Position numbers and translations under genes: made by a program
Shown: positions 1 to 55,197 of the stretch, piece after piece
Position numbering within the stretch: the first letter of the stretch is position 1
Layout of the letters: the number at the start of each line of letters is the position of its first letter
Assembly: GCA_003482855.1 (NCBI GenBank)
Contig: DMXO01000002.1
Coordinates: 210,635-274,634, forward strand
Direction of reading: 5' to 3'
From: Candidatus Magasanikiibacteriota bacterium
Lineage (GTDB): Bacteria > Patescibacteriota > Patescibacteriia > Magasanikbacterales > UBA922
Length of the DNA stretch: 64,000 nucleotides
The notes under the pieces: model-generated
Told to the model about the DNA's origin: nothing
What the model saw: only the letters and a program-made list of their open reading frames with translations
The model's database searches: none

Positions 1-114
1 ATGATACATTAATGGACTACCTCACAGCAAGCTGACGGAATATGAATAAGTAATTTCGAAGCAATCTTTGAGGAATTAAACCCTCTCGTCCCGGCTATCG
101 TCGGAGATTAAGTT

Positions 115-295
115 ATGTTATATGTGTTATATGTCATAAATTTGTATATAAGTATATACTATTATATACAATAATATATATAAGTATAGATTAATATATA
201 CTTATAAAATAGTTATATATTATGAAGCCTTATTTGTATATATTATTATATACAAAAATACCATAATTTTATAAAATAAAATTAATACTGAAAAA
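115..295. repeat. TA-rich low-complexity/(TATA)n-like tract
   Basis: Direct reading: long run of tatata/atatat-rich degenerate repeats upstream of first ORF. Confidence 0.5.
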
Positions 296-317
296 GAATA
301 CTCTTTCCAACATCCTA

Positions 318-346
318 TTGACAAAAATAGGTATTTTTGTTAATAT
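318..346 (+). promoter_or_regulatory. sigma70-like promoter (TTGACA-17-TAATAT)
   Basis: ttgaca at 318-323, 17-nt spacer, taatat at 341-346, about 25 nt upstream of ORF start 371. Confidence 0.4.
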
Positions 347-370
347 TACTCTATACAAATATACCTATCT

Positions 371-685
371 ATGCCTGATCAAAATACACAAATAACAGGA
401 CAGAAACAAAAAGAAATCGTTCGTGTCTCTATATCAGAGGCAGCACGCTTATTTGGTGTCAACCCACAGACAATACGCAGAGCTATCAAAAGCAAAGAAA
501 TAACCTACGTAGTGGTGGCAGGTAGATACAAAATAAACTTCGAAAGCCTGGTCAAATGGTCTCAGGAAAAAACAACTGTAAAAAACAAAACAGAGAAATT
601 TGGTATAGGTCAGTATGTGGATAAATGGAAAATAAAAAACACCCTCTACTCCCCAAGTGTGAAGAGTATAAAAAATAAAGAATAA
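371..685 (+). CDS. excisionase-family/MerR-like helix-turn-helix DNA-binding protein
   Basis: Motif VSISEAARLFGVNPQTIRRAIKSKEI matches excisionase-family HTH pattern; small basic protein. Confidence 0.5.
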   Translation: MPDQNTQITGQKQKEIVRVSISEAARLFGVNPQTIRRAIKSKEITYVVVAGRYKINFESLVKWSQEKTTVKNKTEKFGIGQYVDKWKIKNTLYSPSVKSIKNKE

Positions 686-771
686 GAATGAGATATTGAG
701 ATATTAAAGATATTTTGGATATTAAACAATAAATAATCCGGATACGCCTGCAATAGGCGTTTTATTATAAG

Positions 772-2721
772 TTGGCACATCATCTCCAAAATATCCTAAT
801 ATCAATATCTTTAATATTCAATATCAAAATAATATCTAGCAAATCTAAACGTTCTTGTGTATACTATACACATATGCAATTTGTCGAAAAACACCTAACA
901 AAACACCATCTATTCCATGCCCCTCACAAATGGTTTTTTGCATTTCTTTCATCCCCTATTCACTTTGCCGAATTACATTATAAAAAGAAATACCATCTCA
1001 AATTTGTCCACGCAAAAAAATTATTTGTATTTGACATGCTCTTGCTTCTATCTACAGTAGCTATTTTTATAAGCGCTATATTTTGGTGGGCATACGACCC
1101 AACACTCACTGATCTTATTTATATTACTATTGAACCCACCAAATCTCGTATCATCAGCGGTGAGCAGGTCGGATATCGTATTGTATACAAAAATGAAAGT
1201 GACGTAGGACTTTTTGGTACCACGCTTACGCTTGCCACTCCAGAAGGTTTTGTAGAGACTCAGGTAGTACCTTTTTCATCATATTATGCTACTGCAAAGA
1301 CATTTTCTATCAATGAGCTCAAACCACAAGAGTGGGGTGAAATATATATAGAAGGAATGTTATATGGAACTCCACACAAAGAAACACCTTTGCAAGCAAT
1401 ACTTGAATACACCCAAGAAGGTAGACAAAAGAAAGAACGCAAGATTAGCCCTCATGTAACCATTGTACGTGGTTCACTACTCAAGACAACTATTGATGCA
1501 TCTACGTCTGCACTCAATGACTCAACTACCCCACTTCATATTACACTTACCAACACAGGAGAAGTTGATTTTCCTCTTGTGTCTGTACCCATTCCTTTAC
1601 CACAAGGACTTACTCTAAAAAATCCTCGCGTTGATTTTGGTAAAATAAAAGAAAATCTATGGGACATCGGCACATTAGTGCCTGGCCAAACAGCCACGCT
1701 TGATGCAATGATAGATATACACAATCCTCAAACTCAAGAAATTATTCTCGAAATCACTCCCCAAATATCATTGACTCCTGGACAAAGCATCCTTCAAGAA
1801 ACTCAGAAACATACGCTAACTATCGTATACCCGCACTTATCTGTCTCATCCTCATGGAGCGACAATAGACAATCGTCTAGGCCAGGAGAGACTCCTCAGC
1901 TTATCTACACATTATATAATGACAGTAATACCACACTATCAGATATCGAACTGCACGTGCCTCTCACCGCAGGAGTCGTACATACGAATCAGTTTGGTAC
2001 ACTCAATAAATCGCTTGTGACAAATGGCACAGGTATACTCACAAAAAATAACATACCAGAATTATCATTGCTTATCCCTGGTCAACGCGTGACTGTCCCT
2101 CTATATGTACCCATAGTACAAACACCACAGAATGGCACAGACATCATTCTCAACCTCACGCCAGAAATATATGCCCATGTATCAGGAGTAGAACATGCTA
2201 CATACACCACACAGACACAATCTCCCAAGCTTGCTATTGGTACACAAATACTACTGAACTCTCAATTACGATACTATACCAACGAAGGAGACCAGCTCGG
2301 TCGTGGTCCATTGCCCCCACAAGTAGGCAAAGAAACAAAATACTGGGCCATGATACAAATGACCAATACCACAAGCCGTATAGAAAACCTCATGTTCAAA
2401 GCACAGCTTCCTTCATATGCCACATGGACTGGCAAGACAAGCGTCACACACGGCAGCGATGTTTCATACAATCCACAGACACGACAGATTTCGTGGTCTC
2501 TTTCTAATTTAGGAGCGCATACAACTGCGGGTATTTATTTCGAGTTAGCATTCACACCAATAGAATCCCAGCAAAACACTTCGCCTGTCTTACTACAAAA
2601 CATAAGTTTAAATGCACAAGACGGCTATATCCAAGTGCCCATATACAAGACTTCAAACAATCTAGATATCTCTATCCCAGCTGATACTATTGGGAAAGAA
2701 AAAGGTACAGTAGTAGAATAA
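772..2721 (+). CDS. DUF11 ('conserved repeat domain') cell-surface protein with N-terminal TM anchor; likely true start at ATG 1036 (MLLLLSTVAIF...)
   Basis: Repeated DUF11-like units (ITIEPTKSRIISGEQVGYRIVYKNESDVG..., HITLTNTGEVDFPLVSVPIPLPQGLTL). TM helix right after Met-89. 5' part of listed ORF overlaps AT-rich repeat motifs. Confidence 0.5.
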   Translation: MAHHLQNILISISLIFNIKIISSKSKRSCVYYTHMQFVEKHLTKHHLFHAPHKWFFAFLSSPIHFAELHYKKKYHLKFVHAKKLFVFDMLLLLSTVAIFISAIFWWAYDPTLTDLIYITIEPTKSRIISGEQVGYRIVYKNESDVGLFGTTLTLATPEGFVETQVVPFSSYYATAKTFSINELKPQEWGEIYIEGMLYGTPHKETPLQAILEYTQEGRQKKERKISPHVTIVRGSLLKTTIDASTSALNDSTTPLHITLTNTGEVDFPLVSVPIPLPQGLTLKNPRVDFGKIKENLWDIGTLVPGQTATLDAMIDIHNPQTQEIILEITPQISLTPGQSILQETQKHTLTIVYPHLSVSSSWSDNRQSSRPGETPQLIYTLYNDSNTTLSDIELHVPLTAGVVHTNQFGTLNKSLVTNGTGILTKNNIPELSLLIPGQRVTVPLYVPIVQTPQNGTDIILNLTPEIYAHVSGVEHATYTTQTQSPKLAIGTQILLNSQLRYYTNEGDQLGRGPLPPQVGKETKYWAMIQMTNTTSRIENLMFKAQLPSYATWTGKTSVTHGSDVSYNPQTRQISWSLSNLGAHTTAGIYFELAFTPIESQQNTSPVLLQNISLNAQDGYIQVPIYKTSNNLDISIPADTIGKEKGTVVE

Positions 2722-2890
2722 ATAATACATCACACATAACTCAGAAAACATAACATTTTTGTAATAGTTAAAATATACAAACAATGAGTTATGTTATCTG
2801 GGTGGTAAGTCATGAAAAAGTGCTAAAATTAGCTCTTTTTTATATTGTGGATAACTTTATTTCTCGTACTACAAAAATTGCCTGCAAACC

Positions 2891-2919
2891 TTGACAAAAT
2901 AGCTAAATTATGCTATAAT
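2891..2919 (+). promoter_or_regulatory. consensus sigma70 promoter TTGACA-17-TATAAT
   Basis: ttgaca 2891-2896, 17-nt spacer, tataat 2914-2919; about 45 nt upstream of GT4 gene. Confidence 0.6.
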
Positions 2920-2963
2920 TGTCTGTTATTTTAAGATACCTTACATAGGTACGAATATCACAT

Positions 2964-4145
2964 ATGCGTATAGCATTCATTGGACAAAAAGGAATACCAG
3001 CAACCTACGGTGGCGTAGAACAACACGTACATGATCTTGCAATATCTCTTGCTCAAAAAGGCCACGACGTAACTGCATACAGCCGTGCCTGGTACACCAA
3101 ATCAAAAGCACCTACACACAAAGGTGTGTCTCTTGTGTATACTCCTTCTATCCATACCAAACATTTGGATGCTATTTCACATACATTCACATCTACTCTA
3201 CATGCAATATTCAAAAAATATGATGTGATCCATTATCACGGTGTTGGGCCATCACTTCTCTCATGGATCCCACGCCTACTTTCTCCACGTACAAAAGTAA
3301 TAACCACATTCCACTCTATTGATAGATACCACAAAAAATGGAATAGCATTGCAAAATTCTTTTTGCGTATTGGTGAATATACCGCATGTACATTTGCACA
3401 CAAGACTATTACTGTGTCACAAGGACTCAGGAATTATTGTATCAATGAATTCAATAAACATACTGCGTATATACCAAACGGTGTACATACAGAATATGAT
3501 ACAAGTACGGGTGATCTCATTTCACCATTTGGACTCACAAGAAAAAACTATATTGTCATGGTGTCTCGACTTGTTCCGCACAAAGGAGCACACCTCTTGA
3601 TTGAAGCATTCCACAATCTCAAAGCACGACATGCAGACGATCCATACATCACAAATCTAAAACTTGCGATAGTCGGTGGATCTGCATACACTGATGATTA
3701 TGTCCGTCATCTGCATATACAAGCAAGCAATGTCAACGACATCATATTTACCGACTTCCAATCTGGTGATACACTGCGTGAGCTCTATCGCCATGCTCTA
3801 GCGCTCGTACACCCATCACTCAATGAAGGATTGCCTATCACGGTGCTCCAAGCAATGAGCCACAATACACCCGTACTCGTATCTACTATTCCTGAACACA
3901 TGGAAATTATCAGCGACCCTCGTGCGCTATTTAGAGAGAATGACGTTGACTCTATTGTGCAGTGTATATATGACTTCATTAATTTGCCTCGGGAAGAAAA
4001 AGAAAAGATGATAAAAGAAAACATGCAGACACTGCACGAACGATATAGCTGGGATATCGTAGTACCTCAAATTGAAAAAGTGTATAAACAAAAAACCAAA
4101 CGACAACAAAAGTATACGCAGAGTTTGAGTGAACTACCAGCGTAA
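2964..4145 (+). CDS. glycosyltransferase family 4 (GT4)
   Basis: N-term MRIAFIGQKGIPATYGGVEQHVHDLAISLAQKGHDV typical of GT4 retaining glycosyltransferases; about 390 aa. Confidence 0.85.
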   Translation: MRIAFIGQKGIPATYGGVEQHVHDLAISLAQKGHDVTAYSRAWYTKSKAPTHKGVSLVYTPSIHTKHLDAISHTFTSTLHAIFKKYDVIHYHGVGPSLLSWIPRLLSPRTKVITTFHSIDRYHKKWNSIAKFFLRIGEYTACTFAHKTITVSQGLRNYCINEFNKHTAYIPNGVHTEYDTSTGDLISPFGLTRKNYIVMVSRLVPHKGAHLLIEAFHNLKARHADDPYITNLKLAIVGGSAYTDDYVRHLHIQASNVNDIIFTDFQSGDTLRELYRHALALVHPSLNEGLPITVLQAMSHNTPVLVSTIPEHMEIISDPRALFRENDVDSIVQCIYDFINLPREEKEKMIKENMQTLHERYSWDIVVPQIEKVYKQKTKRQQKYTQSLSELPA

Positions 4146-4164
4146 AAAATCTAAAAACATAAAA

Positions 4165-4200
4165 ACCATCCTTATAAAAGGGTGGTTTTTGTTTTGTTTA
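4165..4200 (+). terminator. rho-independent terminator-like hairpin plus T-run
   Basis: aaaaccatccttataaaagggtggtttttgttttg: stem (with one G.U pair) followed by T-run after GT4 stop. Confidence 0.5.
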
Positions 4201-4396
4201 CTATAACACAGAGTAATATCATTGGGGGTTCGGGGTGGCTACTGTTTGAGCGTCACTGCAAATAAGATGGTATATAATTCTTTGGTATAGCGAGTTTAGC
4301 CACCCCGACACTTTTTGTTACTTTTTGGTGACAAAAAGTAAGCAAGAGGGTGATCACATAAAATACCAATATCCTAATATCCAATATCTTAATATT

Positions 4397-6394
4397 TTAA
4401 AAAGCTCCTTCACTCATCCCTATAATATCATCCTTTCCATCAAAATCCACGTCCACTGCCCTCACATCTATTCCTGGATTACCAAAACTGCTATATGCAG
4501 TAAATGCACTATATTTTTCTTTGCCAGACGCATCAAATATCTTGATAATCGGCGCGCCACCTTTGCCTTTGCCAATAATAACTTCATCTACCCCATCTCC
4601 GTCTACATCTCCTGCCGCGATATGCACGCCACCATAAAATGTAGATTCAAATGCGTTGAAATGATGTTGTTGTTCAAAACTATAATTATATATAGATACA
4701 GACGATCCACCGCTCAGGGCTCCGACAAACAAATAATTGCGTCGCGATATACCTCCATTGTCTATATCCCCCACTGCCAAACTATAACCCCCGTTATATT
4801 GTTCACCAAATGGATAAAAATCATGGCGTACTTTGCGTCCATGACGTGAATATACGCGAATCGGCTCTTTGTATCCTTCGCTTGGTGCTACATACAATTC
4901 AAGATTTTGATCACCATCCAGATCCCCGAGAGCTACATGAAGTGATCCTTCATATTGCGCACCGTACGGATATACATTCATATAGAGCTGTCCATCATCA
5001 CGCCATACTTGTATGCGGTTATGCTTGACAACAATCAATTCACGCTTACCATTGGCATCGAGATCTGTATGCGCGACCTGATAGCCACCTTTTTGTCCAT
5101 CTTCAAATACAAAAAAACCGTTACGCACACGAGAGCTGTCTGGTCTAAAAAATCGTAAAAATGATCCATTGGTAAATAGTACATCGCTCAATGTCTCAAA
5201 TGTTTTGAGCAGTATAAGTCCATCTTTGCCGGGTACCATAACTTCAGACACAATTGACCCGTCATTTATACCTTCATCTTGAGTGCCATGAATTTTTTCA
5301 TATTCACCACCAAGATCCAAAACTTTTGCCTGATTTGTGCTGTTGACAATAGACACGCCATGTTCAAAATTGCGTTTCCATACATCTTCTTTGTATGTCG
5401 TATATGATTGCTGCGATGTGGCAGGAGCTATTGGTTCACCCAAATCTACATCATATTCATCATACCACCATGTCTGGCCATGATCTGTGTCACCATGGTC
5501 GAAGGAAAAATAAATATTATTTTCAAGCAAACTACTTGTAATGCCAAAGCGCATTTTTTTGTAATCATCATTATTTCCATTATTATTGGTATTACTATTG
5601 AAAATGATAATCTGCGGTTTTTTATTATCTTTTTTGATGCGTACTACATTATTCATAATGGTAGACCATGAGCCATCCCCTTCCCATGGTGTAGGAAATG
5701 TCTCAAACATGCGACCATTCACATACTGCTGAAAATCTGTGTGAGAACTACCATTCATAATAATATAATCAGTGTTCAAGTGGTCCTGCGCATATTTGAG
5801 TAAATATTGTGTACGTTCACGCCAGAGAGGGTCTGCCTCAGATGGAATATCCTTTTGCCCGTCATTATTGAGATCTATATTCCCCCCATTTGCCCATGAA
5901 ATATTTTCTGATATCATATCAAAAAATATCCCGTCTACATGCGACAAAGACATAATATAGGTATTGCAAAATTCAACAAGATATTTACTCCACGCATGAT
6001 CCATATTTATGTTATAAATACCATCCCACGTAGACACTTGTCTACCAGACGAATCACGAAGCCACCACGTATTGTCCACATTCATATGTCTAAATACGTT
6101 ATCTGAAGACCAATACGTATAGTTATAACTTTGTGAAGGAATATATGCCAATATAATAATATCTGGATTTTGTTTCTTGATAGAATCTATGGTAGATTGT
6201 CGCGCTGCTATTTGAGCAGGCGTGAGTATGAGCACATCATAACGAGCAAAATCGGCTGCGTTACCATCAGAAATCGCATTGAGATAATAATTGGCAATAT
6301 AAGGAGCATCCTGTGTATATACAAAACTACCAGCAAAGAAGCTAGCCATGATAATTATCGCAATAATAGTTTTTGCACTACACAAAATTTTCAT
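4397..6394 (-). CDS. secreted protein: N-terminal TIM-barrel glycoside-hydrolase-like domain plus C-terminal FG-GAP/VCBS repeats (likely start MKILCSAKTIIAIIIMASFFAG at 6394)
   Basis: Signal-peptide-like N-term; C-terminal repeated DGDG/DxDxDG motifs (DGDGVDEVIIGKGKGG, DLDGDQNLELYV, DIDNGGISRRNYLFVGALSGG) typical of FG-GAP. GH-like assignment tentative. Confidence 0.6.
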   Translation of the reverse strand: MKILCSAKTIIAIIIMASFFAGSFVYTQDAPYIANYYLNAISDGNAADFARYDVLILTPAQIAARQSTIDSIKKQNPDIIILAYIPSQSYNYTYWSSDNVFRHMNVDNTWWLRDSSGRQVSTWDGIYNINMDHAWSKYLVEFCNTYIMSLSHVDGIFFDMISENISWANGGNIDLNNDGQKDIPSEADPLWRERTQYLLKYAQDHLNTDYIIMNGSSHTDFQQYVNGRMFETFPTPWEGDGSWSTIMNNVVRIKKDNKKPQIIIFNSNTNNNGNNDDYKKMRFGITSSLLENNIYFSFDHGDTDHGQTWWYDEYDVDLGEPIAPATSQQSYTTYKEDVWKRNFEHGVSIVNSTNQAKVLDLGGEYEKIHGTQDEGINDGSIVSEVMVPGKDGLILLKTFETLSDVLFTNGSFLRFFRPDSSRVRNGFFVFEDGQKGGYQVAHTDLDANGKRELIVVKHNRIQVWRDDGQLYMNVYPYGAQYEGSLHVALGDLDGDQNLELYVAPSEGYKEPIRVYSRHGRKVRHDFYPFGEQYNGGYSLAVGDIDNGGISRRNYLFVGALSGGSSVSIYNYSFEQQHHFNAFESTFYGGVHIAAGDVDGDGVDEVIIGKGKGGAPIIKIFDASGKEKYSAFTAYSSFGNPGIDVRAVDVDFDGKDDIIGMSEGAF

Positions 6395-7559
6395 AGATAG
6401 ATACCAATTGTGTATAATATGCCTCTCCATTATTTTGTTCTTGCACTTGTGTCTGAAGATCTCTGCCAACTTTCACAAGTTCACGATCATCTGCGTTGTA
6501 CCACATCTCAATAGTCTGAGAAAATTCGTCTACATTTGCGGGATCACATAGCATATGTTGTGGTAACATTTCTACCACTCCTCCAATTCGTGAAGCAACC
6601 ACTGGCTTGCCATACGCTTTTGCTTCGAGAATGCTCAGGGGATAATTTTCATACCACTGCGAAGGCACGACAACCACACGCGCATTACACATAATTGTAT
6701 CCAATTCTTTGCCTGATGTATATCCAACATATACTATATTGGGGATAGCCAAATCTTCTAGTTGTTTTTTCAAAGGGCCATCTCCCACGACCGTGTATGT
6801 GATATGTGGTGTCTTTTTTGCGATTTCGGGAAGCAAAAGTACACCTTTCTCTTGACCCAATCTGCCAATATATAGCACCCCACGTCCTGGTACTACGCCG
6901 ACTTCTTGTGGATTAAAATCAAATGGATTATGTATAACATGTATGTCGCGTTCAAACCCGCATGATACAAATTTTTCTTTCAAAAAATTACTCGGACTAA
7001 TATATGTATCTATCGCACGTGCCCACTTCTTCCATGCCCTCACACAAGCTTCACCTGTGGCAATAATACTTTCACCACCATGTTCCATACAATTATTGAG
7101 CAAACATCGATAATAATGTGACCCACAACAACTTTCATCGATTTTACCGTGATGAAACAAATTATAATTAGGACTTATCATCTTGTAATCATGCAATGTC
7201 ATAACGCATGGGATACCTTTTTCTTGTACAACGTCGAGCAAAGAAAAAGAAAGCTGATGATATATATTATGAATATGTATAACCTCAGGTCCAAAATCTT
7301 CAACCAATTTCCTAAACTTATTTTTTGCGTCTACATTATATATAGATTTCAATGCATCTCGCACCCTACCAAGGCCTCTCACCTGTGAGTAATCTATGAA
7401 GTCAATAAAATAATCATTCTCAATAGTATTTTCAGGATGTTTCATGCCAAAAATTTGAACCTCATGGCCATGTTCCTCAAGCAATTTCTTTGTAGCAAAA
7501 ACAACGCGCTCTGCCCCGCCACGGATGTACCAATATTTGTTGACGAGTAAAACCTTCAT
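6378..7559 (-). CDS. glycosyltransferase family 4 (GT4)
   Basis: MKVLLVNKYWYIRGGAERVVFATKKLLEEHGHEVQIFG; C-terminal GT4 sugar-donor binding region. Confidence 0.85.
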   Translation of the reverse strand: MKVLLVNKYWYIRGGAERVVFATKKLLEEHGHEVQIFGMKHPENTIENDYFIDFIDYSQVRGLGRVRDALKSIYNVDAKNKFRKLVEDFGPEVIHIHNIYHQLSFSLLDVVQEKGIPCVMTLHDYKMISPNYNLFHHGKIDESCCGSHYYRCLLNNCMEHGGESIIATGEACVRAWKKWARAIDTYISPSNFLKEKFVSCGFERDIHVIHNPFDFNPQEVGVVPGRGVLYIGRLGQEKGVLLLPEIAKKTPHITYTVVGDGPLKKQLEDLAIPNIVYVGYTSGKELDTIMCNARVVVVPSQWYENYPLSILEAKAYGKPVVASRIGGVVEMLPQHMLCDPANVDEFSQTIEMWYNADDRELVKVGRDLQTQVQEQNNGEAYYTQLVSIYENFV

Positions 7560-8560
7560 AAATCCCTCATCCCCCCAACCTTATTTTTCACTATCCAACA
7601 TGCAACTTTGTGTGGATTTTTCTTGATTGCCGTACGCGCGGTACATATCATCCATGCAGGCCGTCCAATCGTACGCACTTTCTCTCGTGCATCATCTGCA
7701 CGCGGTCCATACCACAGATCATCCCACGTACCATAATTTTGAATATTTCCCATGGGGTAATTGTGCACCACAGACGGATACACAACACCACGCGGATCAA
7801 GATAAAAAAACTTAGTCCCCGGGTCATTATTCAAAACTTGTTTTTTCTCTATGCTAAATTTGTATAGTCCGTGCGAAAAAAATGCCCGCACCCATTTTTT
7901 GGGATGCCATGACGAAAGCTCGCTATTGATGATATGCAAATATTGTTTTTTGAGTTCATTCAGATCTGGTTTATTATCATCATTATTTGCTCCACCAAAA
8001 TAATGTTCAGAGGTCTGAGCAAATGCATGAGTAAATTGAATTCCCCTCTTTTGTGTTTCATCATAGACACGACCAAAATCTTGTATGTTTTGCGGTAGTA
8101 TGGTGAATGCCATACGCAAATTTTTCATACCCAATTTTTGCAATCGTTCTATAGTCTCTGTCACTTTGTCCCAAGCTTGAGGGATGCGTCGTATCTTTTC
8201 GTGCATATCCCCATATCCATCTACTGACACCGCCACACCGATATCTGGCTTCACTTTCAAAACATCTTTCATCTGCTTTTCGATAAACGCGGGCATGAAG
8301 CCGTTGGTAGAGATAACCATACGCGCTTTGGGAGCAGCCTTTTGTGCTGTCGCAATAATATCTGCAATATCTTTGCGCAAAAATGGCTCGCCACCAGAAA
8401 TGTTGATATCACGTAATGTGGGTGGAAGCTTTTTGTATTCTTCGACTGGTAACTCAGGAAATTCTTTAATTTTCCAAATATCACACATCACACAGCGAGC
8501 ATTACAGTTGTACGTGATGCCGAGGACGCAGTCGATGGGGAGTTGAACTTTGGACGACAT
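7556..8560 (-). CDS. radical SAM enzyme (CX3CX2C)
   Basis: GITYNCNARCVMCDIWK contains the canonical CxxxCxxC 4Fe-4S/SAM motif; ATGA overlap with downstream GT4. Confidence 0.75.
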   Translation of the reverse strand: MSSKVQLPIDCVLGITYNCNARCVMCDIWKIKEFPELPVEEYKKLPPTLRDINISGGEPFLRKDIADIIATAQKAAPKARMVISTNGFMPAFIEKQMKDVLKVKPDIGVAVSVDGYGDMHEKIRRIPQAWDKVTETIERLQKLGMKNLRMAFTILPQNIQDFGRVYDETQKRGIQFTHAFAQTSEHYFGGANNDDNKPDLNELKKQYLHIINSELSSWHPKKWVRAFFSHGLYKFSIEKKQVLNNDPGTKFFYLDPRGVVYPSVVHNYPMGNIQNYGTWDDLWYGPRADDAREKVRTIGRPAWMICTARTAIKKNPHKVACWIVKNKVGGMRDL

Positions 8561-8562
8561 AA

Positions 8563-8625
8563 CAAATATTAAGATATTAAGATATTAAGATATTGTGTAA
8601 CATAATATCTTAATATCACAATTTC
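8563..8625. repeat. TTAAGATA tandem repeat (x3) plus inverted copy AATATCTTAATAT
   Basis: atattaagatattaagatattaagatatt ... aatatcttaatat, directly upstream of radical SAM start. Confidence 0.6.
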
Positions 8626-8633
8626 TCAGTTTC

Positions 8634-10127
8634 CTATTCCCCTTCCAATATATTCCCCTTATGCTTTTCTCTATACCAACAAAGTGCGACGATCCCTACA
8701 ATTGTCCAATAATAAAACATAAGTGTACGGAATTCAAAATACGGGCCAAAAAAACCAATACACATTACCCCTGCAGTCAGACCAACAAGCCCTTCGGCAA
8801 TGACATGTTCAAACACGTCGTGTACACTCTTGCGAACTACACAGGCCATGCGCATGATAGTAACAAATATACCAAACCACACGATGAGTCCTATCGTACC
8901 AAACTCTCCCCATATGCTCATCCAATTATTATCAATCTGTCCATATAGATTCTGAATGCCAAACGGCATATGCAGACGGTCATACATATCGGTATGCAGT
9001 AGTGCAGCTGCGACACCTCCGCCGTACTGTCCTGGTCCCACGCCAAATAATGGATACTGTGATACGACCAAACGAGGCGTATTGATAATAAAAAATATGC
9101 GCCCATATCCATCATAGCTATCACGCCACGCTTGAAAACTAAAAGCTTCAAACACACGCTCGCCAAATGATTGTGTCGGTTTCTCAGTCACTGATGTGAC
9201 ATTGGTCTTCACTAATGCAAACCCGACCAAATATATGAGTACGATACTTACAAAAATTCCAAGCCCGACTGCCACGCGTCTATCGCGTCGTAATGCAAGT
9301 CCTATGACTGCGATACCTACAAAAGCCGCAATCCAACTCGCGCGTGATGATGTGAGGAAGAGTACCACAAGCCCGGCAAACCCCGCCACCATATACCAAA
9401 TTTTACGAGTAGATTTATCTCGGGTAAAAATCCACGGGAAAAACATCACAAGGCCAAGCGCGACAAAACTCCCGAGTTGATCATATCTTCCCATGGTTGC
9501 AAATACACGGCTTCCTGTTGTCCAAAACTGTTCAAGTCCACCAAGAAGTGCTGCATTGCCTACCATGACCGTACGTGTAGAAAACAAATACTGATCCAGA
9601 TAACCACCTGACACATATTGAATAAGGCCAAATACAATTTCAACCACCATCATGGTACCACCAATCATTACCATGTTTTTCAATATTTCTTTGTCATATT
9701 GGATCCACAGTATGACAAAGAGCATCAATACAAAACGCAGTATCTGTCGCAATCCAAATGCCCATATCCATGGGCTATACCAATTCACAATGAGTGACAA
9801 ACACGCGACAAGGACAAAGCCAATAAACCATGCATTGAGTGGCTGTCGCGGTAATAATTTCTTCTTTCTACGGACAAACGATATCAGACTTCCACCAACC
9901 AAACCATACATGATAACTTCAGGGATATACTTCACATACGCGAAATAATCTATAGGTGTATACATGAGTACTAGACTTTCCAAAGGAAACCAAACAAGGA
10001 GACCATAAATGATCCACTCACTTTTCCTTATGGTAAATGTAAACAAAAAGCCCAAAACAAATATACAACATAACAAAAAAAGACCAATAAAATTGTTCGG
10101 TAAATAAGCTAACATCGTATCAATCAT
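8634..10127 (-). CDS. O-antigen ligase/polymerase (Wzy-like) polytopic membrane protein
   Basis: About 12 TM helices; TSSRASWIAAFVGIAVIGLAL segment resembles Wzy_C/O-antigen ligase signature region. Confidence 0.7.
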   Translation of the reverse strand: MIDTMLAYLPNNFIGLFLLCCIFVLGFLFTFTIRKSEWIIYGLLVWFPLESLVLMYTPIDYFAYVKYIPEVIMYGLVGGSLISFVRRKKKLLPRQPLNAWFIGFVLVACLSLIVNWYSPWIWAFGLRQILRFVLMLFVILWIQYDKEILKNMVMIGGTMMVVEIVFGLIQYVSGGYLDQYLFSTRTVMVGNAALLGGLEQFWTTGSRVFATMGRYDQLGSFVALGLVMFFPWIFTRDKSTRKIWYMVAGFAGLVVLFLTSSRASWIAAFVGIAVIGLALRRDRRVAVGLGIFVSIVLIYLVGFALVKTNVTSVTEKPTQSFGERVFEAFSFQAWRDSYDGYGRIFFIINTPRLVVSQYPLFGVGPGQYGGGVAAALLHTDMYDRLHMPFGIQNLYGQIDNNWMSIWGEFGTIGLIVWFGIFVTIMRMACVVRKSVHDVFEHVIAEGLVGLTAGVMCIGFFGPYFEFRTLMFYYWTIVGIVALCWYREKHKGNILEGE

Positions 10128-10231
10128 AGTACCTATATATTATCATATAGTAAGCATTTTTCAAAGATCAAATCTAGACCAGGCACGAGACACTTATTAA
10201 AACAAAAAACTCCATTTTATAGGAGCCATTT

Positions 10232-10345
10232 TAAATTCACCTAACTGTCCAATTCCCAATTCACCTAATAAAATTCAAATGTATAAATTGAAAATTATAT
10301 TATTGGACATTTTATTAGGTAATTGGAAATTAGGTGAATTAGAAA
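10232..10345. repeat. imperfect inverted repeat (aattcacctaa...ttaggtgaatt arms) at left edge of high-GC island
   Basis: aattcacctaactgtccaattcccaattcacctaataaaat ... attttattaggtaattggaaattaggtgaatt. Confidence 0.5.
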
Positions 10346-10581
10346 TTTTTATAGTAACCCTCAACACCTTCATAAACTTTTATAAAAGTGTAGTTGGGTT
10401 GGGATTCGGCGCGCAGTCGAATCCCTTCCCTCCTTTCCGCCTCCCGAGGGAGACGATGCGCCTGGACAGTGCCGCCAGGCTCGGCGTGGTTCACTCCCCG
10501 TGATCAGCTCTGCGCGAGCCGCGGATCATCATGAACGTGAATGTTTTCGACGCGGCGGCGGAGATAGAGGGTCGAGACGAC

Positions 10582-12573
10582 CTAGTTCTCCGGGGCGCAG
10601 TACACGCCCTCGTCGTTCCAACCGGTGCAGCCCACGGGGCCGGCGGGGTCGGCCACGCACCAGGGCGCCGTGTAGCAGCAGGAGGTGGCCGCCGTCGGGT
10701 CCGTGGTCGGCGTACCGCCGATCCACATCTCCTTCACGGGCGAGGCCATGCACGCCGCGAACAGCGGGTAGGTCGGCGCGGGCGTCGGCGTGTACACGCA
10801 GGTCATGTTGACGCAGGTGTCGATCGTGGCGCCGTTGCCGTCGTCGCAGTTCGCGTCGATCAGGCACTGGACGCAGGTCGCGTCGCCGCCACCGAGGTCC
10901 TGGCAGACGCCGGTCGTGCAGAGCGGCCCGCTGCTGCAGACGCCGGCCGTGCAGGTGTCGGCCGTGCAGGCATCGCCGTCGTCGCACTCGCCGTCGGCGG
11001 TGCAGTCCGGCACGCAGGCCGGGTCCGCCACGCAGTCGGGGTCGAGGCAGTCGGCGAGGCCGTCGGCGTCGTTGTCGAACGTGTCGGAGCAGGCGGCCTC
11101 GGTGTCGCAGTAGCCCGGGGCGCACATGGTGCAGCCCTGGACGTCGCGGCACTCCATGACGGCTCCGAGCGGACCGCACTCCTCCTCGTCAGCCCACAGG
11201 CCGACCTGCGTGCCCGGGATGAGCGTGCAGATGCGGTGCGTGAGGATGGCGGGGCCGGTGGTCTGCTCGACCTCGACGCAGAGCCCCTTGACCGTGACGC
11301 CGGCCTCGATCTCCTGCGCGGTGAACGTGCAGAAGTCGAGCGTGCAGATCGCGTCCGCGGTGCACACGCCGTTGCCGTCGGGCAGCTCGCAGAGCGAGCC
11401 CGTGGCCATCGGGTCGTGGCTGACGGCGCCGTTGGCCGAGTCGCACGCGTCGAGCGTGCAGGGGTTATCGTCGTCGGTGTCGACGTCGATGCCGACGCAG
11501 AGGCCGGCGACCGAGCAGGCGTCCTGCAGGGTGCAGGCGTCGCCGTCGTCGCAGATCAGGCTCGGCTGCGGAACGTGGGTGACGACACCCTCGATGTCGC
11601 ACGCGTCGAGCGTGCAGTCGTTGAGGTCGTCGATGTCCGACTTGGGCTCCGCCTCGCAGAGGCCGACGATGCACATGTCGTTCATGGTGCAGGCGTCGCC
11701 GTCGTCGCAGGCGAGCCCGTCCATGGCCTCGGTGTCGAAGTCGCAGCCCGTGACCGAGTCGCACGTGTCGACCGTGCAGTCGTTCTCGTCGTCGCAGACG
11801 AGCGACTCGGACTCGCACCAGCCCGTGACGAGGTTGCACGTGTTCACCGTGCAGGCGTCCGCGTCGGTGCAGTCCGTGTTCGACTCGCACTCGACGAGCT
11901 CGCGGCAGTAGCCGACCGCGGCCGGGGTGAGCGCCTCGGGGTTGATGGCGCACTCCTGCTCGTGCCCGTTGGGGCTCACGGGACAGGGGTCCACGATCGG
12001 GACGAGGTGGCAGTTGCCATCCACGTCCAGGTGGGTCACCACGGAGAAGCGGCCGACGTACACCTCGAGCTCGCCCGTGGCCGGGTTGTACCAGAGGTCG
12101 CCGTCCTCGGCCGTGTCGCACGACACGAGGTAGCGGGGGCCGATCGGGCCGTAGCAGTCGGAGCCCGTGATGCCCGGCTGGAACGTGAGCGCCGACCGCG
12201 TGGTCATGGTGCCGTCGCCGTTGTCGATGATGCCGAACTCCTCGTTGAGGTTGATCTGCGCCGTGTTGTAGCGCTCCACGATCGCCTCGTACGAGAGGGG
12301 CTCGACGTTGACGCTGGCGGGGTAGGCCGAGCAGCCCGTGTTGCGGTCGACCATCGGGTTCTCCGAGATCGGGCCGCAGTAGGTGTAGCCCTGGGGCGAC
12401 ACCGCGAACACGTGCTGCACGCTGACCTCGTCGGTCACGCTGGCGTACCACCAGGTCGAGTCGACCTGGAGCTGGTTGGTGGGCGCCTCCTTGTCGCCCA
12501 GGTTCGGGTTGTTGGCCTCGCAGCCGATGATGCCGATGACGCCGAGCACGAACAGAACCGTCGCCTTGCGCAT
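10582..12573 (-). CDS. lipoprotein with Cys/Asp-rich tandem repeats (Myxococcus-type cysteine-rich-repeat-like)
   Basis: Lipoprotein signal MRKATVLFVLGVIGIIGC. Repeated units CDDGDACTxxDxC and DxNDCTxDxCD. SD GGGAGG 7 nt upstream of ATG. Confidence 0.65.
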   Translation of the reverse strand: MRKATVLFVLGVIGIIGCEANNPNLGDKEAPTNQLQVDSTWWYASVTDEVSVQHVFAVSPQGYTYCGPISENPMVDRNTGCSAYPASVNVEPLSYEAIVERYNTAQINLNEEFGIIDNGDGTMTTRSALTFQPGITGSDCYGPIGPRYLVSCDTAEDGDLWYNPATGELEVYVGRFSVVTHLDVDGNCHLVPIVDPCPVSPNGHEQECAINPEALTPAAVGYCRELVECESNTDCTDADACTVNTCNLVTGWCESESLVCDDENDCTVDTCDSVTGCDFDTEAMDGLACDDGDACTMNDMCIVGLCEAEPKSDIDDLNDCTLDACDIEGVVTHVPQPSLICDDGDACTLQDACSVAGLCVGIDVDTDDDNPCTLDACDSANGAVSHDPMATGSLCELPDGNGVCTADAICTLDFCTFTAQEIEAGVTVKGLCVEVEQTTGPAILTHRICTLIPGTQVGLWADEEECGPLGAVMECRDVQGCTMCAPGYCDTEAACSDTFDNDADGLADCLDPDCVADPACVPDCTADGECDDGDACTADTCTAGVCSSGPLCTTGVCQDLGGGDATCVQCLIDANCDDGNGATIDTCVNMTCVYTPTPAPTYPLFAACMASPVKEMWIGGTPTTDPTAATSCCYTAPWCVADPAGPVGCTGWNDEGVYCAPEN

Positions 12574-12872
12574 GGGTTAACCTCCCGTGTTGCGCCGTTG
12601 CACGACCTCTCCCTCCCCAGACCTGGGGACAATGCCCTGGCTAAGGGGCGGGAGATAGAAAGCACTAGCCACTGACCTGAACAACTTTGTTATTCACTCA
12701 GTGGCTAGCACTTTCAAAAATACACTATATTGGATTGAAAGGTACTTCACCACCAAACTTATACAGTTTGATGATGACGATGCCTTTCCCCTCGTCCCCA
12801 TTCAGACACGCGCTTGGTAGCGACGCGTCCGAACAGCGGGGACGAGGGAAGGCGGAAGGACATGCGGCTCGA

Positions 12873-14147
12873 TCAGCCGCCGATGACGTCGGACCAGCCG
12901 AACCAGGTGGTGCCGCCGTTCTGCGAGCAGCCGTGGGCCGGATCGGCCTGGCACTCCGTGGCACCCACCGAGGTGGAGCCGCAGGTGACGACCTCGACCC
13001 ACATGCCGCTGGTGCAGCGGGCGAGCGAGGTGTTGCCCGTGGCCACGAAGTCGTAGCAGACCACGGCACCCTCGGTGCACTCGCTGGCCGTGACGGCCGG
13101 GGCGCAGTGCGCGAGGAGGCCCTGGTAGGGCTGGCACACGGTGCCCTCACCGCAGGGGTCGATCTCGACGCACGTGCCGTTGACCATGGTGGCCACGGTG
13201 CAGACGTTGCCGTCGGACTCGACGCACTGCGGGTCGCCCTCGATCACCTCGATGTGGTGGCAGCCGGAGGCCGCGTCGCACGTGTCGAAGGTGTCGTCGT
13301 TGGCGTCGTCGCAGGAGAGCGACGTGTTGGCGCAGTGGCCGTTGACCAGGCACTGGTCGAGCGTGCAGGCGTTGCTGTCGAAGCAGTCCTGGTTGCTCGT
13401 GCAGAGCTGGCGGCAGATGCCGACGTCGCACCACTGCGACTCGGGGTCACAGAGAGGCGCGAACTCGCACTCCTCGGTCTCCCAGTTGCACGTCGGGACG
13501 ACGCACGGGTCGGCCGACTCGCACGAGTTCAGGCACGCCGGCGGGAGCGACATGTGGCCGCAGTGGCCGGTGGCCTCGTCGCAGGAGTCCTGCGTGTTCG
13601 ACATGCCGTCGTCGCAGAACCCCACGTACACGGGGTTCCCGTTGACGTCGCAGAGGTCGGTCGTGCAGAGGCTGCCGTCGTTGGCGTCGCACACGCCGAC
13701 GTACTCCTCGACGCACACGCGCTCGCCGTTGTCGTCCGCCTTGCAGACGGACCGATAGAGCGGGTCGCTCGGGATGGGGCACGTGTAGGCGTAGCGCTTG
13801 ACGTTCCCCGTCATGTTGTCGCACACGTCGACCGTGCAGGGGTTGCCGTCATCGACGTTGGAGCACTCATGCTCCTTGATGACGCAGGCACCGAGCCAGC
13901 ACGCGAACGGCTCACCGCACTGCACCTCGTCGGTCGCGATGCACTCGCCGTTGGCGCACGTGCGGGTCTCGCAGGTGTCGGGATTCTCGGCGTAGCAGTC
14001 GGCCGACGTGAAGCACGTCAGCCCGACGTCGTCGGGGGTCGGCTCGCGCTGGACGGGCGGGGTCGTGGAGTTGTCGTCCTGGTTGAGGTACGGGTTGCCG
14101 TTGCAGGCCGCGAGGAACGCGAACACGAACAGGATGCTCTTCTTCAT
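12873..14147 (-). CDS. lipoprotein with Cys-rich repeats (paralogous architecture to 10582..12573)
   Basis: Lipobox MKKSILFVFAFLAAC. NPCTVDVCD / SLCTTDLCD / NACTLDQC repeats. SD GGAGAG upstream. Confidence 0.65.
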   Translation of the reverse strand: MKKSILFVFAFLAACNGNPYLNQDDNSTTPPVQREPTPDDVGLTCFTSADCYAENPDTCETRTCANGECIATDEVQCGEPFACWLGACVIKEHECSNVDDGNPCTVDVCDNMTGNVKRYAYTCPIPSDPLYRSVCKADDNGERVCVEEYVGVCDANDGSLCTTDLCDVNGNPVYVGFCDDGMSNTQDSCDEATGHCGHMSLPPACLNSCESADPCVVPTCNWETEECEFAPLCDPESQWCDVGICRQLCTSNQDCFDSNACTLDQCLVNGHCANTSLSCDDANDDTFDTCDAASGCHHIEVIEGDPQCVESDGNVCTVATMVNGTCVEIDPCGEGTVCQPYQGLLAHCAPAVTASECTEGAVVCYDFVATGNTSLARCTSGMWVEVVTCGSTSVGATECQADPAHGCSQNGGTTWFGWSDVIGG

Positions 14148-14224
14148 CTGGATCTCTCCGTCGGTTGGCCCGCACTCCGTGAGTCGGGCTCTGGTTCTTG
14201 TTCTCGATCTTCTTGCTTGAAGGA

Positions 14225-14833
14225 TCAGTACGCCCAGTACACTCCGGCGCCGGCTTCCTGGCGGTAGAGCGGGTCATCCCCGCCACCGAACCAGCCCGGC
14301 CCGAAAGTGTAGCGCGCCTCGAACCCGAAGTGTTCCCACGGTTGCCATCGCATGGCTACCGAGGCCACGAACGAGTTCACGACGTCGCTGTTCTGGGTCG
14401 TCGACATGCGGTCGTAGCCGATACCGGCGAGGCACTGGATCTTGTCCAGATGCGTCCGGTACGCGGCCTGGATCAGGCCCGTCATGAAGAGGGTGTCGAC
14501 GCCCTGCTCCATACCACCGGTCTCCACGCGCATGTAGCCGAAGTTCCCGAGGAACTCGAGACCGAAGTGCTGGGTCAGGGAGACCCAGCCCATGATCTGG
14601 AGCTTCGGGACTCCGGTCTGCACCTCGCCCGCGCCGCTGAAGTAACCCAGGAGGGCCACCTTGAAGCGGAACGAGTCGAGCTCGTGCGACATGGCGACCG
14701 ACTCGATCGCCGCGCGCGGGATGCGCGGGTCCGGGACCTGATACACGGTCGGCGCGGGCTGGGCCCGCACCGAGTTGGGGTTGAGGAACAGGACGAGGAA
14801 CAGGACGCTCAGGAACAGGTTCGCGCAACGCAT
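14225..14833 (-). CDS. outer-membrane beta-barrel protein (OmpA-like/OMP_b-brl), start at MRCANLFLSV...
   Basis: Signal peptide MRCANLFLSVLFLVLFLNPNSVRAQ, alternating hydrophobic beta-strand pattern, C-terminal aromatic (…GVYWAY), SD GGAGGGAG upstream. Confidence 0.55.
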   Translation of the reverse strand: MRCANLFLSVLFLVLFLNPNSVRAQPAPTVYQVPDPRIPRAAIESVAMSHELDSFRFKVALLGYFSGAGEVQTGVPKLQIMGWVSLTQHFGLEFLGNFGYMRVETGGMEQGVDTLFMTGLIQAAYRTHLDKIQCLAGIGYDRMSTTQNSDVVNSFVASVAMRWQPWEHFGFEARYTFGPGWFGGGDDPLYRQEAGAGVYWAY

Positions 14834-15059
14834 CGGACTCCCTCCGTCTGGGTGTGTTCGCAACTCGCGACTCTCGAAACGAAAGACTATAAATGTCCTT
14901 CCGCACTCCGACCCACAAGGCCGGAGATTGGAAATGTGTCTCCTAAGCACTCATACATATACAAAAAATACATTGTATATGCATACGTACTTAGGAAAAC
15001 ATTTGTAAAGAACAAAGGAATTCTTACCCTGTACCTTTATGGTACTAGGGTTATTCCCA

Positions 15060-15125
15060 TTTTCTGACAACATCTGATACAGATATTGTCACAAAGCGGG
15101 TGGGGTGGGGTATCGTCGTAAACAG
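15060..15125 (-). terminator. GC-rich hairpin (gcgggtggggtat/ataccccacccgc) downstream of 15201..16691 gene
   Basis: 13-bp stem, about 25-nt loop, followed on minus strand by TTTGTG; sits in AT-rich spacer inside island. Confidence 0.4.
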
Positions 15126-15200
15126 TCTCAAACTCATACCCCACCCGCAGATGTCCGTGGATCCTCCCGGTTCCTCGGACGTCGTGTCAAAATGCCCTGG

Positions 15201-16691: not shown

Positions 16692-17063
16692 GGTACTCTC
16701 TCCCTAGTCCTGCCCCTGGTGGGGGCGCAGTGAAAGCGCGCCCCACGTTGGGGCTTTGGTAACCTACCGTAGGCCTCGCGACACACGTCGCGTGACCATA
16801 TCCGGATACTGTATATGATCATAGAGATCATAGCCTGTACCCGGATATGGTATTTTATTTTTTTGTAGCTATTTTGACACGAATTCTTGTAAAGAGCGAC
16901 ACTCACCCTATTTTAGGATGAACAGAAGATTATATCATATATTGTGTAGTTTGTCAAGAGATAAAGGCTCTATATTTTCCCTCGGGAGAACAGATATTTT
17001 TTGCTTAATATAGAGAAAAAAATGAAAAACAAAAAAGGCTTTATTGAGCCAATTTTGCTATCA

Positions 17064-17145
17064 CTCGAACACTTGAACACCTAAGCACTGGAGCACCAGG
17101 TCACTGAAGCATTTAAGCACTAGGACATTTAATTACTTAAACACC
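17064..17145. repeat. array of degenerate TAAGCAC/GAGCACC/TGAACACC ~9-bp units (intergenic motif family, copy A)
   Basis: cgaacacttgaacacctaagcactggagcaccaggtcactgaagcatttaagcactaggaca... Confidence 0.55.
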
Positions 17146-26111: not shown

Positions 26112-26273
26112 AGTAAAATGTTTAATTTAAAATTTTAAATTTAAAAATTTTGAATTGTCCTAGACCCAGACCTAAAGGGTTCTCAAATTCGAAATTTTAA
26201 ATTCAAAATTAACAAATGAATATACCACAAAATCCCTCTTTTGTCAATCTATACAGCAAAAAAATTAGTTCTT

Positions 26274-29404: not shown

Positions 29405-29795
29405 GGGGATGACAGGGTTCGATAGGTGGACCTATGTTATCTACTATATGCATGTCGAGGTGGTATACGATCCTCGTAAAACCCGTATACAATTCTCAAG
29501 TGCAAACTTGGTAAGTCGAGTGAAAAACGCAGTAGCGCAAGCTTTCCGCGTCCCAACATTCGCATCTGTAGTGGCCTAATAGGCCTGCTACCATCATTCC
29601 CATGATACTCGGTAATGGATGAATGGTGTCAACCTATCGAGTGTAGGATATATGTGCTTTCTGTCGCATATACTCGAAATAAATACAGGATCAGTTGATT
29701 GCTATTTTGCTGATTTCTAAGCAATCAATAAAACACCAAACCAGCTATACATGTAGATTGTGGTGGTAACCCATCTAGACCCGGGTTCAATTCCC
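29405..29795 (+). ncRNA. ssrA: tmRNA (ssrA)
   Basis: 5' GGGGATGACAGGGTTCGATAGG. 3' T-arm ccggg-ttcaatt-cccgg then acceptor catctcc pairing with 5' ggggatg incl. G3.U wobble. Internal ORF ending in stop inside ggcctaataggcc hairpin. CCA not encoded (..tccaCGA). Confidence 0.7.
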
Positions 29796-29934
29796 GGCAT
29801 CTCCACGAAAAGCGGTGCAACCGCTTTGAGTGACGCGTGATGAGCGAAGCGAATTTTACGCGTCACAACCAATAACTGCTTTTTCAACGGCACCGCCTCG
29901 TGGCGATGCCATAGTAAAATTAGCAAGGAGGATT

Positions 29935-32654: not shown

Positions 32655-32845
32655 AATATCTAAGTCTTCTAAGCTCTCTAAGCTTTCTCAGTTCTTCTGA
32701 GATTAGCATAGTGCTTAGTATAAAAAAACTGTGGTTGTAAACCACAGACACTCTGTAACCCTCGACCTTTTTGTCTAGCTAAAATAATTTAGAAAACCTA
32801 GATAGCTTAGACGACTTAGAGGTTACCTCGGCAGGAAATTGAGTC
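32655..32845 (-). promoter_or_regulatory. putative rplJ 5' leader (L10-leader-like) containing 9-mer tandem repeats and GNRA-type hairpin
   Basis: tctaagtcttctaagctctctaagctttctcag tandem units; perfect hairpin ctgtggtt-gtaa-accacag; position upstream of rplJ. Confidence 0.35.
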
Positions 32846-55112: not shown

Positions 55113-55197
55113 AAGCTCATAAGGCCGACGAGGCTTACAAAGCCCATGATGCTTTTGTAAGCCTTGCAAGCATTGTAAGCTTTATAAACCTTTTATT

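Follow-up and report, generated by a model that had tools for sequence, protein, structure and literature searches.

The window analysed here, a stretch of 64 kb, matches contig MFQX01000013.1 of assembly GCA_001783195.1, a groundwater Candidatus Magasanikbacteria genome from the Patescibacteria or Candidate Phyla Radiation (CPR). A surface-glycan locus near its beginning carries clustered copies of GATATT and of the reverse complement AATATC in the spacers between its genes, and these arrays are the subject of this work. The locus holds a gene for an excisionase-family helix-turn-helix protein (HTH_17; 371-685, plus strand), which has a promoter TTGACA-17-TAATAT at 318-346 and a divergent ECF-type sigma factor gene upstream. 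It is followed on the plus strand by the gene for a DUF11/CLIPPER surface protein (874-2721), downstream of the first two arrays, and by a GT4 glycosyltransferase gene (2964-4145). The minus strand encodes a GHL15/FG-GAP protein (4397-6469), a second GT4 protein (6378-7559), a radical SAM protein (rSAM; 7556-8560) and Wzy_C (8634-10127). This gene order is kept in dozens of Magasanikbacteria, Uhrbacteria and Falkowbacteria. The identities given to these seven genes, and to nadC further along, in a preliminary description of the stretch all hold. There is no strong promoter ahead of the rSAM gene, and a promoter-like site at 10164-10137 is the best candidate for the whole minus-strand string; the rSAM-GT4-GHL15 genes are probably co-transcribed with Wzy_C from there.

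We covered the window and a further 10 kb of the same genome, together with about 20 kb from each relative, and all compared sequences are assembly consensus. Genes were called crudely, as longest open reading frames (ORFs) starting with ATG, and 35 window ORFs, mostly of at least 150 aa, were scanned for domains. Arrays were detected by 6-mer counts and with Tandem Repeats Finder (TRF), and the shuffled controls preserve dinucleotides only. Loci of relatives are labelled L002 and so on; L102 is a syntenic stretch from the same relative as L011.

The GATATT/AATATC arrays of the surface-glycan locus

Array A (690-723, plus strand) is composed of four direct, head-to-tail GATATT units at 692, 700, 709 and 718, with a period of 8-9 (TRF period 8/9/18). 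It begins 5 nt past the stop codon of the HTH gene and lies ahead of the terminator of that gene. Its inverted partner, array B (790-836, plus strand), contains five AATATC and one AATATT. Array C (4368-4396, plus strand), with three AATATC and one AATATT, is a solo arm without a local partner and adjoins the stop codon (4397-4399) of the minus-strand GHL15 gene. Array D (8566-8617) fills the spacer between Wzy_C and rSAM and comes within 5 nt of the rSAM ATG (8560); it is built from (ATATTAAG) x3.6 at 100% identity (TRF, 8566-8594), a 9-nt loop and the inverted AATATCTTAATATC (8604-8617). The rSAM-GT4-GHL15/FG-GAP string (4397-8560, minus strand) is bracketed by D on its 5' side and by C on its 3' side. 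A fifth copy is found inside the nadC coding sequence (37244-37286, plus strand), where AATATC and GATATT are followed by GAGATATTGAGATATT; it is in frame (..NIKGILEDTEILRYS..) and falls in a length-variable segment of NadC. The arrays thus occupy transcribed spacers after a stop codon (A and C), between cistrons and near a start (D) or upstream of a promoter (B), in addition to the nadC segment. Every copy named in the preliminary description is present where it was placed or within a few bases of it, including the one directly upstream of the rSAM/GT4 operon, which is array D.

The GATATT/AATATC repeats are genuine and clearly non-random. Clusters of at least three GATATT/AATATC hexamers occur five times, while 0.01 are expected from 300 block-wise dinucleotide shuffles. 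The 16-mer GAGATATTGAGATATT, earlier said to recur in nadC, does so exactly: it has two occurrences in all (690-705 and 37271-37286), with none expected. The 13-mer AATATCTTAATAT is found nine times with up to one mismatch against 0.3 expected, and all nine lie within the five sites. Non-coding sequence makes up 11.9% of the window and holds four of the five clusters (P = 9e-4). The 83 hexamer matches outside the clusters resemble background. The copies also have spacer bases in common besides the hexamer. GATATTGA(G)ATATTAAAGATATT is found in A and in the reverse complement of B, GATATT(G)GATATTAGGATATT in both B and C, and AATATTAAGATATT in both C and D. Array arms mirror each other down to these spacer bases. 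The copies are therefore related by descent and are not independent matches to a consensus. This agrees with the earlier suggestion of a dispersed repeat, as does the genome-wide class of short-unit arrays to which they belong.

Arrays A and B are identical in eight contigs and C and D in four, which come from several independent assemblies (consensus sequences). A pattern scan of metagenomes for the sequences flanking D turned up no contig. In the closest relative (L095, 97% identical HTH protein) the contig stops precisely at the base where array A begins. The arrays break short-read assemblies, and they explain why assemblies end at such sites. Many independent assemblies (L002-L004, L007, L008 and L095) start or end in AT-rich repeats upstream of the HTH gene (window 1-370).

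Short-unit arrays in genes, spacers and relatives

The nadC gene contains three arrays according to TRF, namely TACAAGC x4.7, CTAAAAC/CTATAAC x4.3 and the GATATT copy. Since several in-frame arrays are present in this gene, the GATATT copy is not a special regulatory site. In nadB there are again three arrays, AGCACAAA x3.6, AAAATGC x4.6 and CCTAAAA x4.4, and the CCTAAAA/CCTATAA unit is common to this last one and the second nadC array. The tsaD gene carries an in-frame hairpin of GACTTCAGCAATCA x2 and GAAGTCC x3 as well as AACTCCG x4.6. The in-frame arrays of nadC, nadB and tsaD have units of 7-8 bp in three to five copies, several at 100% identity, and lie at 36793-36825, 37119-37148, 37966-37994, 38685-38751, 40067-40130 and 40674-40705. 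All reading frames stay open, and the peptides encoded by the repeats fall in length-variable segments; in TsaD, the position just after NHIEGHIHS is a hot spot at which insertions of 0-60 residues occur across the family.

The syntenic stretch L102 has arrays of other units at the corresponding codon positions of nadC, nadB and tsaD. At the first nadC site TACAAGC in the window stands against TACGGC/TACGAC in L102 between identical flanks (tggtttcTTAC...TTACAAAAAAGATG), and this is an orthologous array whose unit has changed in concert. The second nadC site has CTAAAAC in the window and CAAATTT x5 in L102, and differing units likewise occupy one and the same place at the first nadB site (37966-37994) and at the tsaD hot spot. 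Array positions are thus conserved while the unit turns over. In L011, and also in L029, CAATATC x5 and x4 are located inside a GT4 coding sequence (L011 860-905 and 978-1012). Together they amount to 35 + 28 = 63 nt and thus restore the frame, they encode repeated NIQYPIS peptides in two loops, and their core is the core of the window's unit.

The window also contains arrays with other units. A hairpin array of AATTCACCT is located upstream of Wzy_C (10228-10346), one of AATTTAAA upstream of the ATG at 26111 (26117-26223), one of GACTTCAG/GAAGTCC at 40064-40133, one of TAAGCYT upstream of the ATG at 55198 (55112-55183), and one of TATATAC upstream of the HTH gene. On the minus strand, CTAAGnnnn arrays of period 9 (32654-32696 and 32783-32825) form an outer stem around the leader of rplJ, which matches the Rfam family L10_leader at 32714-32885, and adjoin the rplJ ATG.

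In 1.29 Mb of related loci TRF detected 402 arrays, against 75 in shuffled sequence. For periods 7-9 the counts are 108 real and 4 shuffled, and for the periods 7, 8, 14 and 16, which are not multiples of a codon, they are together 138 and 21. Array density is very uneven across genomes (0 to 5.5 per 10 kb). When arrays were scored by k-mer windows as one 6-mer occurring at least four times in 60 nt, the density was 0.52/kb in spacers and 0.07/kb in coding sequence, a difference of about 7x. A typical array extends from a stop codon to a point 10-30 nt ahead of the following gene's start. Relatives have the architecture seen in the window, in which a direct array is followed by a loop and by its mirror image; each genome has its own unit, often at several sites within 10 kb: AAACAT occurs at four or more sites in L066, AAAGTC recurs in L063, and AAGTTTATA is found at seven sites in L028. 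Between them, L011, L017, L015, L066, L030, L049 and L067 have TTCGTA, ACTAGT, AAACAT, GACTTC, GTTAGTA and TATCAC arrays in the corresponding spacers. A single genome holds many unit families, even side by side in adjacent spacers, and a unit is common to 13.9% of array pairs from the same locus, compared to 5.0% of pairs from different loci.

In L053 a 135-nt pair of inverted arrays with 91% identity and CTCAAAAC-type units (15048-15182 and 19973-20107) stands around 4.8 kb. Each copy follows one of two divergently transcribed units (GT4-GHL15 in one direction, a gene of 483 aa in the other), so that both transcripts would end with identical sequence.

Origin of the arrays and rival explanations

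On balance we lean towards the view that the GATATT/AATATC copies are a locally amplified family of microsatellite-like arrays with units of 7-9 bp, of a kind that abounds in this Magasanikbacteria genome and in part of the related genomes. A microsatellite-like character fits the many different units, the periods of 7-9, the direct and mirrored arms, the local sharing of units, the turnover of units at fixed positions, the location in coding loops and the fact that no transposase, recombinase or reverse transcriptase was found in the 74 kb examined. Replication slippage would create the head-to-tail copies, and intrastrand template switching, as it takes place in quasipalindrome correction, might produce the mirrored arms. 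Short-range ectopic copying could place one unit at several sites within a few kilobases. Arrays would then persist only where changes in length are tolerated, and coding loops would constrain nothing but the total length. The last unit of array D supplies a TAATAT 5 nt before the rSAM ATG on the minus strand, and relatives have GAATAT or TAATGT at this position. D therefore looks like a tandem expansion of an 8-mer that holds a -10-like box ahead of the rSAM start.

Several points weigh against this interpretation. The proposed mechanism is read from sequence patterns, and neither slippage intermediates nor copy-number variants are seen in the assemblies, which are consensus sequences. One unit at four spacers of a single functional locus, with consistent polarity, could reflect co-regulation. 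Where arrays keep their position from one species to another, the reason may be function as much as tolerance. Unlike most other arrays, those of the rplJ leader retain their unit, CTAAG, in both the window genome and L102, so at least some arrays are constrained in sequence. Furthermore, the gene calls are crude and AT-rich DNA inflates weak k-mer statistics. An effect of the arrays on neighbouring genes, if there is one, would come through DNA or RNA structure in cis. Predicted folds suggest three candidates, namely the stem of A and B that encloses the HTH terminator, the hairpin of D next to the rSAM start, and a possible pairing of the two operon ends by C and D, and none of them would require recognition of a specific sequence. 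A sequence-specific reader of the arrays seems unlikely.

A less probable alternative is that the arrays are RNA modules acting in cis or in trans. Transcribed GAUAUU arrays in the 3' untranslated region (UTR), those of A and C, would pair with AAUAUC near the starts (D and B) and lead to RNase III-type processing, to pairing of the 5' and 3' ends of an operon, or to a regulatory RNA derived from the 3' UTR and coordinating the glycan genes. The predicted hairpins and duplexes are indeed strong. A and B together are predicted to form a long AT-rich stem (-35.7 kcal/mol, z -5.0) that has the intrinsic terminator of the HTH gene in its loop (744-770, plus strand; ACGCCT-gcaat-AGGCGT and a T run), and D is predicted to fold into a 14-bp hairpin (-21 kcal/mol, z -4.6). 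C alone is predicted to be unstructured. It is, however, a 31-nt inverted match to D at 90%, and the predicted RNA duplex between C and the start-proximal part of D on the minus strand covers about 34 bp (-36.1 kcal/mol, z -8.7). In the minus-strand transcript the unit of C is GAUAUU, placed in the 3' UTR ahead of a two-way terminator (4159-4192). The polarity on the transcribed strand is consistent, with GAUAUU after stops (A, C) and AAUAUC before starts (B, D). Position fits as well: D is 5 nt from the rSAM ATG, and arrays of relatives often end 10-30 nt before a start or adjoin a stop. L066 has the same layout, in which the HTH stop codon is followed by (AAACAT)x4 and a terminator while ATGTTT arrays adjoin other start codons, and the L011 operon is bracketed by inverted repeats of a different sequence. 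Precedents exist in the 5'-UTR hairpin of hmw (PMC12721329) and in the TAACTGA repeats upstream of starts (PMC4679880).

Several results speak against such a role. In co-directional spacers that contain arrays the sense strand does not fold significantly better than the antisense strand (22 versus 16, p = 0.22), whereas array-free spacers do fold better on the sense strand (p = 3e-7). Many arrays are direct only and unstructured, inverted repeats that flank an operon are significant in 3 of 28 species only, arrays occur in coding sequence too, and they are absent from many orthologous spacers. Array B ends 23 nt upstream of a -10-like TATACT (860-865), itself 8 nt before the DUF11 ATG (874), and the closest relative has TATAAT at the same position. 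B is thus probably upstream of the DUF11 promoter and outside its mRNA. We also considered that arrays replace Shine-Dalgarno sites and rejected this, since the lack of such sites is general: a Shine-Dalgarno-like motif is found in 3 of 47 window genes and missing from the other 44, so the arrays are not special substitutes for a ribosome site. Two further roles were likewise discarded. As intrinsic terminators the arrays fail because their stems consist of A and T only and have no T run; a terminator scan gave 16 matches, of which none coincides with an array and only those at 744-760 and 4159-4192 lie in array-bearing spacers. As canonical promoters they give weak matches only (9/12), and strong sigma-70-type promoters are located elsewhere, at 318-346 and 2891-2919. 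A search of Rfam over the arrays, at the gathering threshold and at E <= 1, returned nothing meaningful.

Two observations on the transcripts of this genome may be added. A TATAAT-like box stands 5-12 nt ahead of the ATG in many genes (for example DUF11, Wzy_C and rSAM), which may indicate that leaderless mRNAs are widespread. The spacer between the two-way terminator and array C (4196-4340) is strongly structured and has no match in Rfam; its predicted fold comprises a G+C-rich stem of 12 bp and a stem of 10-13 bp (-39 to -43 kcal/mol, z -3 to -4.5).

A bolder and rather unlikely scenario is that an active lineage-specific process of Magasanikbacteria, and perhaps of other Patescibacteria, writes and maintains arrays of 7-9 bp at fixed slots, both in spacers and in loops of proteins, and that the cell exploits matched arrays as address codes. 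The writing process could be an unusual repair or template-switching activity. GAUAUU after the HTH and GHL15 genes would pair with AAUAUC before rSAM and DUF11 and in this way couple the expression of surface-glycan genes. As the unit can change in concert, such an address code would be private to each strain. We found no description of arrays of this kind in the CPR in the literature searched, which is no proof of novelty.

Ribbon-helix-helix regulators polymerise on operators made of contiguous short units, such as the WATCACW heptads of omega, the ParR iterons and the 8-bp metboxes of MetJ. The arrays might accordingly be DNA operators of a fast-evolving repressor of this type that reads units of 7-8 bp and co-regulates the surface-glycan genes, but we regard this as quite unlikely. 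The likeness is one of architecture: units are contiguous with a period of 8-9, direct (A) and inverted (A/B, D), and arrays of 7-9-bp units stand at gene boundaries and by promoters, B just upstream of the putative -35 position of DUF11 and D overlapping the -10-like box of rSAM. One unit at four boundaries of one functional locus would fit as well. Known ribbon-helix-helix systems, however, have one unit per regulator and an adjacent regulator gene. Here many unit families coexist per genome, even in neighbouring spacers, units turn over between close relatives while the neighbouring proteins are conserved, and similar arrays are found inside the coding sequences of enzymes. Among the ORFs of at least 80 aa between 1 and 10.6 kb we found no gene for a ribbon-helix-helix protein or for any regulator other than the invariant HTH protein, and smaller ORFs there were not searched in full.

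Among the classic contingency loci are those of glycosyltransferases, and slippage in D, perhaps also in A to C, might switch or tune the surface-glycan operon. Array D has the form expected of such a locus, a perfect repeat near the start of a surface gene (8 bp x3.6, 100%), here between a -10-like box and the start of the glycan operon. A relative has 7-bp repeats in five and four copies inside a GT4 coding sequence, and the hmw heptamers provide a precedent (PMC12721329). We consider phase variation very unlikely all the same. No difference in copy number is seen across four to eight independent assemblies, which give consensus sequences; most arrays are imperfect and short, with three to five units; and arrays are also found in nadC, nadB, tsaD and the rplJ leader, where switching would make no sense.

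The preliminary description had suggested that the copies could be operator sites for the adjacent excisionase-family HTH_17 protein, and this we judge highly improbable. Recombination directionality factors bind head-to-tail repeats, array A begins 5 nt past the HTH gene, and none of the four spacer sites is more than 8 kb away from that gene. The protein has 104 aa and an invariant C-terminal GIGQYVDKWKIKNTLYSPS motif, and it has more than 2000 homologues; among the 120 best listed, identity across the aligned part is 75-100%. In an alignment of 12 homologues the HTH and wing regions are virtually identical, although the adjacent array units are unrelated (GATATT, TTCGTA, GTTACT, ACTAGT, GACTTC, GTTAGTA, AAAGTC, AAACAT, TATCAC, ACGAATAT and CACGCA). 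GATATT arrays stand beside the HTH gene in one of 79 loci, for which each species of the collection was represented by one genome, and this one is the window genome. The spacer between HTH and DUF11 varies from 0 to 420 bp in relatives, with 0-20 bp in several, and carries strong arrays in about a quarter of them. A different motif is conserved with the protein. TATACAA, as part of TTGTATA/TATACAA palindromes, falls within the 450 bp ahead of this protein's gene in 92% of 78 loci and occurs in 9% of background windows; in the window such palindromes lie at 228-262 and, overlapping the HTH promoter, at 330-361. The palindrome is a far better operator candidate than the GATATT arrays, either for the HTH protein or for the divergent ECF-type sigma factor. 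Because the DNA-binding region is invariant while the flanking units differ, the arrays are often absent and another motif travels with the protein, the operator reading is not supported. We found no tRNA near the locus and no integrase that would give an att-site context, and the HTH gene is in fixed synteny with the ECF-type sigma factor, DUF11 and GT4/GHL15 genes in Magasanikbacteria, Uhrbacteria and Falkowbacteria. The excisionase-family protein is a conserved syntenic partner and not part of a mobile element, and in annotation the GATATT arrays should not be taken to mark a regulon of the HTH protein beside them.

Equally implausible is a mobile palindromic element, similar to miniature inverted-repeat transposable elements (MITEs), repetitive extragenic palindromes (REPs) or Rickettsia palindromic elements (RPEs), or a segment between C and D that can invert. 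D and the stretch of about 145 bp made up of A, the terminator and B do resemble units bounded by inverted repeats, the 31-nt, 90% C/D pair brackets 4.2 kb as the 135-bp, 91% pair of L053 brackets 4.8 kb, and the in-frame hairpin inserts of tsaD recall RPEs, but the copies have the arrays alone and no internal sequence in common, target-site duplications are not evident, orthologous sites carry differing sequences, which argues against insertion of a common element, and the genes have one orientation in all assemblies and relatives. Among the scanned ORFs of the 74 kb examined there is no transposase, recombinase or reverse transcriptase domain, and neither a REP-associated tyrosine transposase (RAYT) nor an invertase was found in these 74 kb.

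Comparison with known repeats and further features of the window

The closest described analogues of the arrays are the heptamer repeats of cyanobacteria and Beggiatoa. Short tandemly repeated repetitive (STRR) sequences of cyanobacteria were reportedly described by Mazel et al. in 1990. TAACTGA heptamer repeats are known from Beggiatoaceae, Cyanobacteria and Bacteroidetes (MacGregor 2015, PMC4679880). Like the arrays described here, the TAACTGA and STRR repeats have short units, are mostly intergenic and often end just before the starts of genes without a Shine-Dalgarno sequence; some sets are inside ORFs or upstream of ribosomal-protein genes, and they have no known reader or mechanism. Their units of 7 bp come in sets of 2-6, and the present arrays are likewise far above chance. 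The known repeats differ in that one or a few units are used genome-wide and across phyla, nearly always direct and in one orientation, whereas we find dozens of units that are specific to a genome and to a site, periods of 7-9, frequent mirrored hairpin arrays and families confined to a few kilobases. Both orientations occur here, and the orientation relative to a start codon holds for B and D only.

In Haemophilus influenzae the hmw 5' UTR contains an (ATCTTTC)n hairpin that is processed by RNase III (PMC12721329). The resemblance to our arrays lies in a tandem repeat, of 7 bp in hmw, which is placed in the 5' UTR of a gene for a surface structure and which there makes up one arm of a long hairpin. 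The hmw repeat has at least 11 units, is polymorphic and is experimentally phase-variable, and its other arm is a G-rich non-repeat sequence. Here, in contrast, there are three to five units, both arms are arrays and no polymorphism is seen. Genic repeat units of Borgs are, as far as described, multiples of three and direct only, and RPEs are mobile palindromes of 100-150 bp with conserved sequence. Borg tandem repeats are reported to be pervasive and rapidly evolving and to occur in spacers and in frame in genes (PMC9879509). In-frame repeats that yield variable, low-complexity protein segments are a feature common to Borg repeats, RPEs and the arrays of the window, while our units measure 7-9 bp and it is the total length alone that keeps the reading frame.

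Streamlined genomes of candidate phyla are usually thought to be poor in repeats. Here, arrays of 7-9 bp exceed chance about 27x, and they are found in frame inside the essential enzymes NadC, NadB and TsaD as well as in spacers by start codons. Together with the turnover of units at conserved positions, this suggests either that replication or repair works in an unusual way in these uncultivated bacteria or that repeats have a structural use there.

The window has other features besides its arrays. From about 10400 to 17000 the G+C content rises from about 38-42% to 62-66%, and four long ORFs in this stretch (10531-12675, 12687-14267, 14198-15067 and 15105-16733) have no matches in Pfam or NCBIfam. 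The stretch is flanked by the array hairpins at 10228-10346 and by a 26-nt palindrome (16795-16851), its junction is present in the independent assemblies L002 and L003, and it may be a foreign island. Further downstream a giant ORF of 2533 aa (17330-24931) shows faint PP2C-like matches only, and just beyond its 3' end lies a direct array of AAGCAC-type units (17060-17140). The NadA ORF (35103-36464) has an N-terminal cytidylyltransferase-like domain (residues 5-128), a fusion that is also found in L102. Finally, a tmRNA gene is located at 29405-29808.

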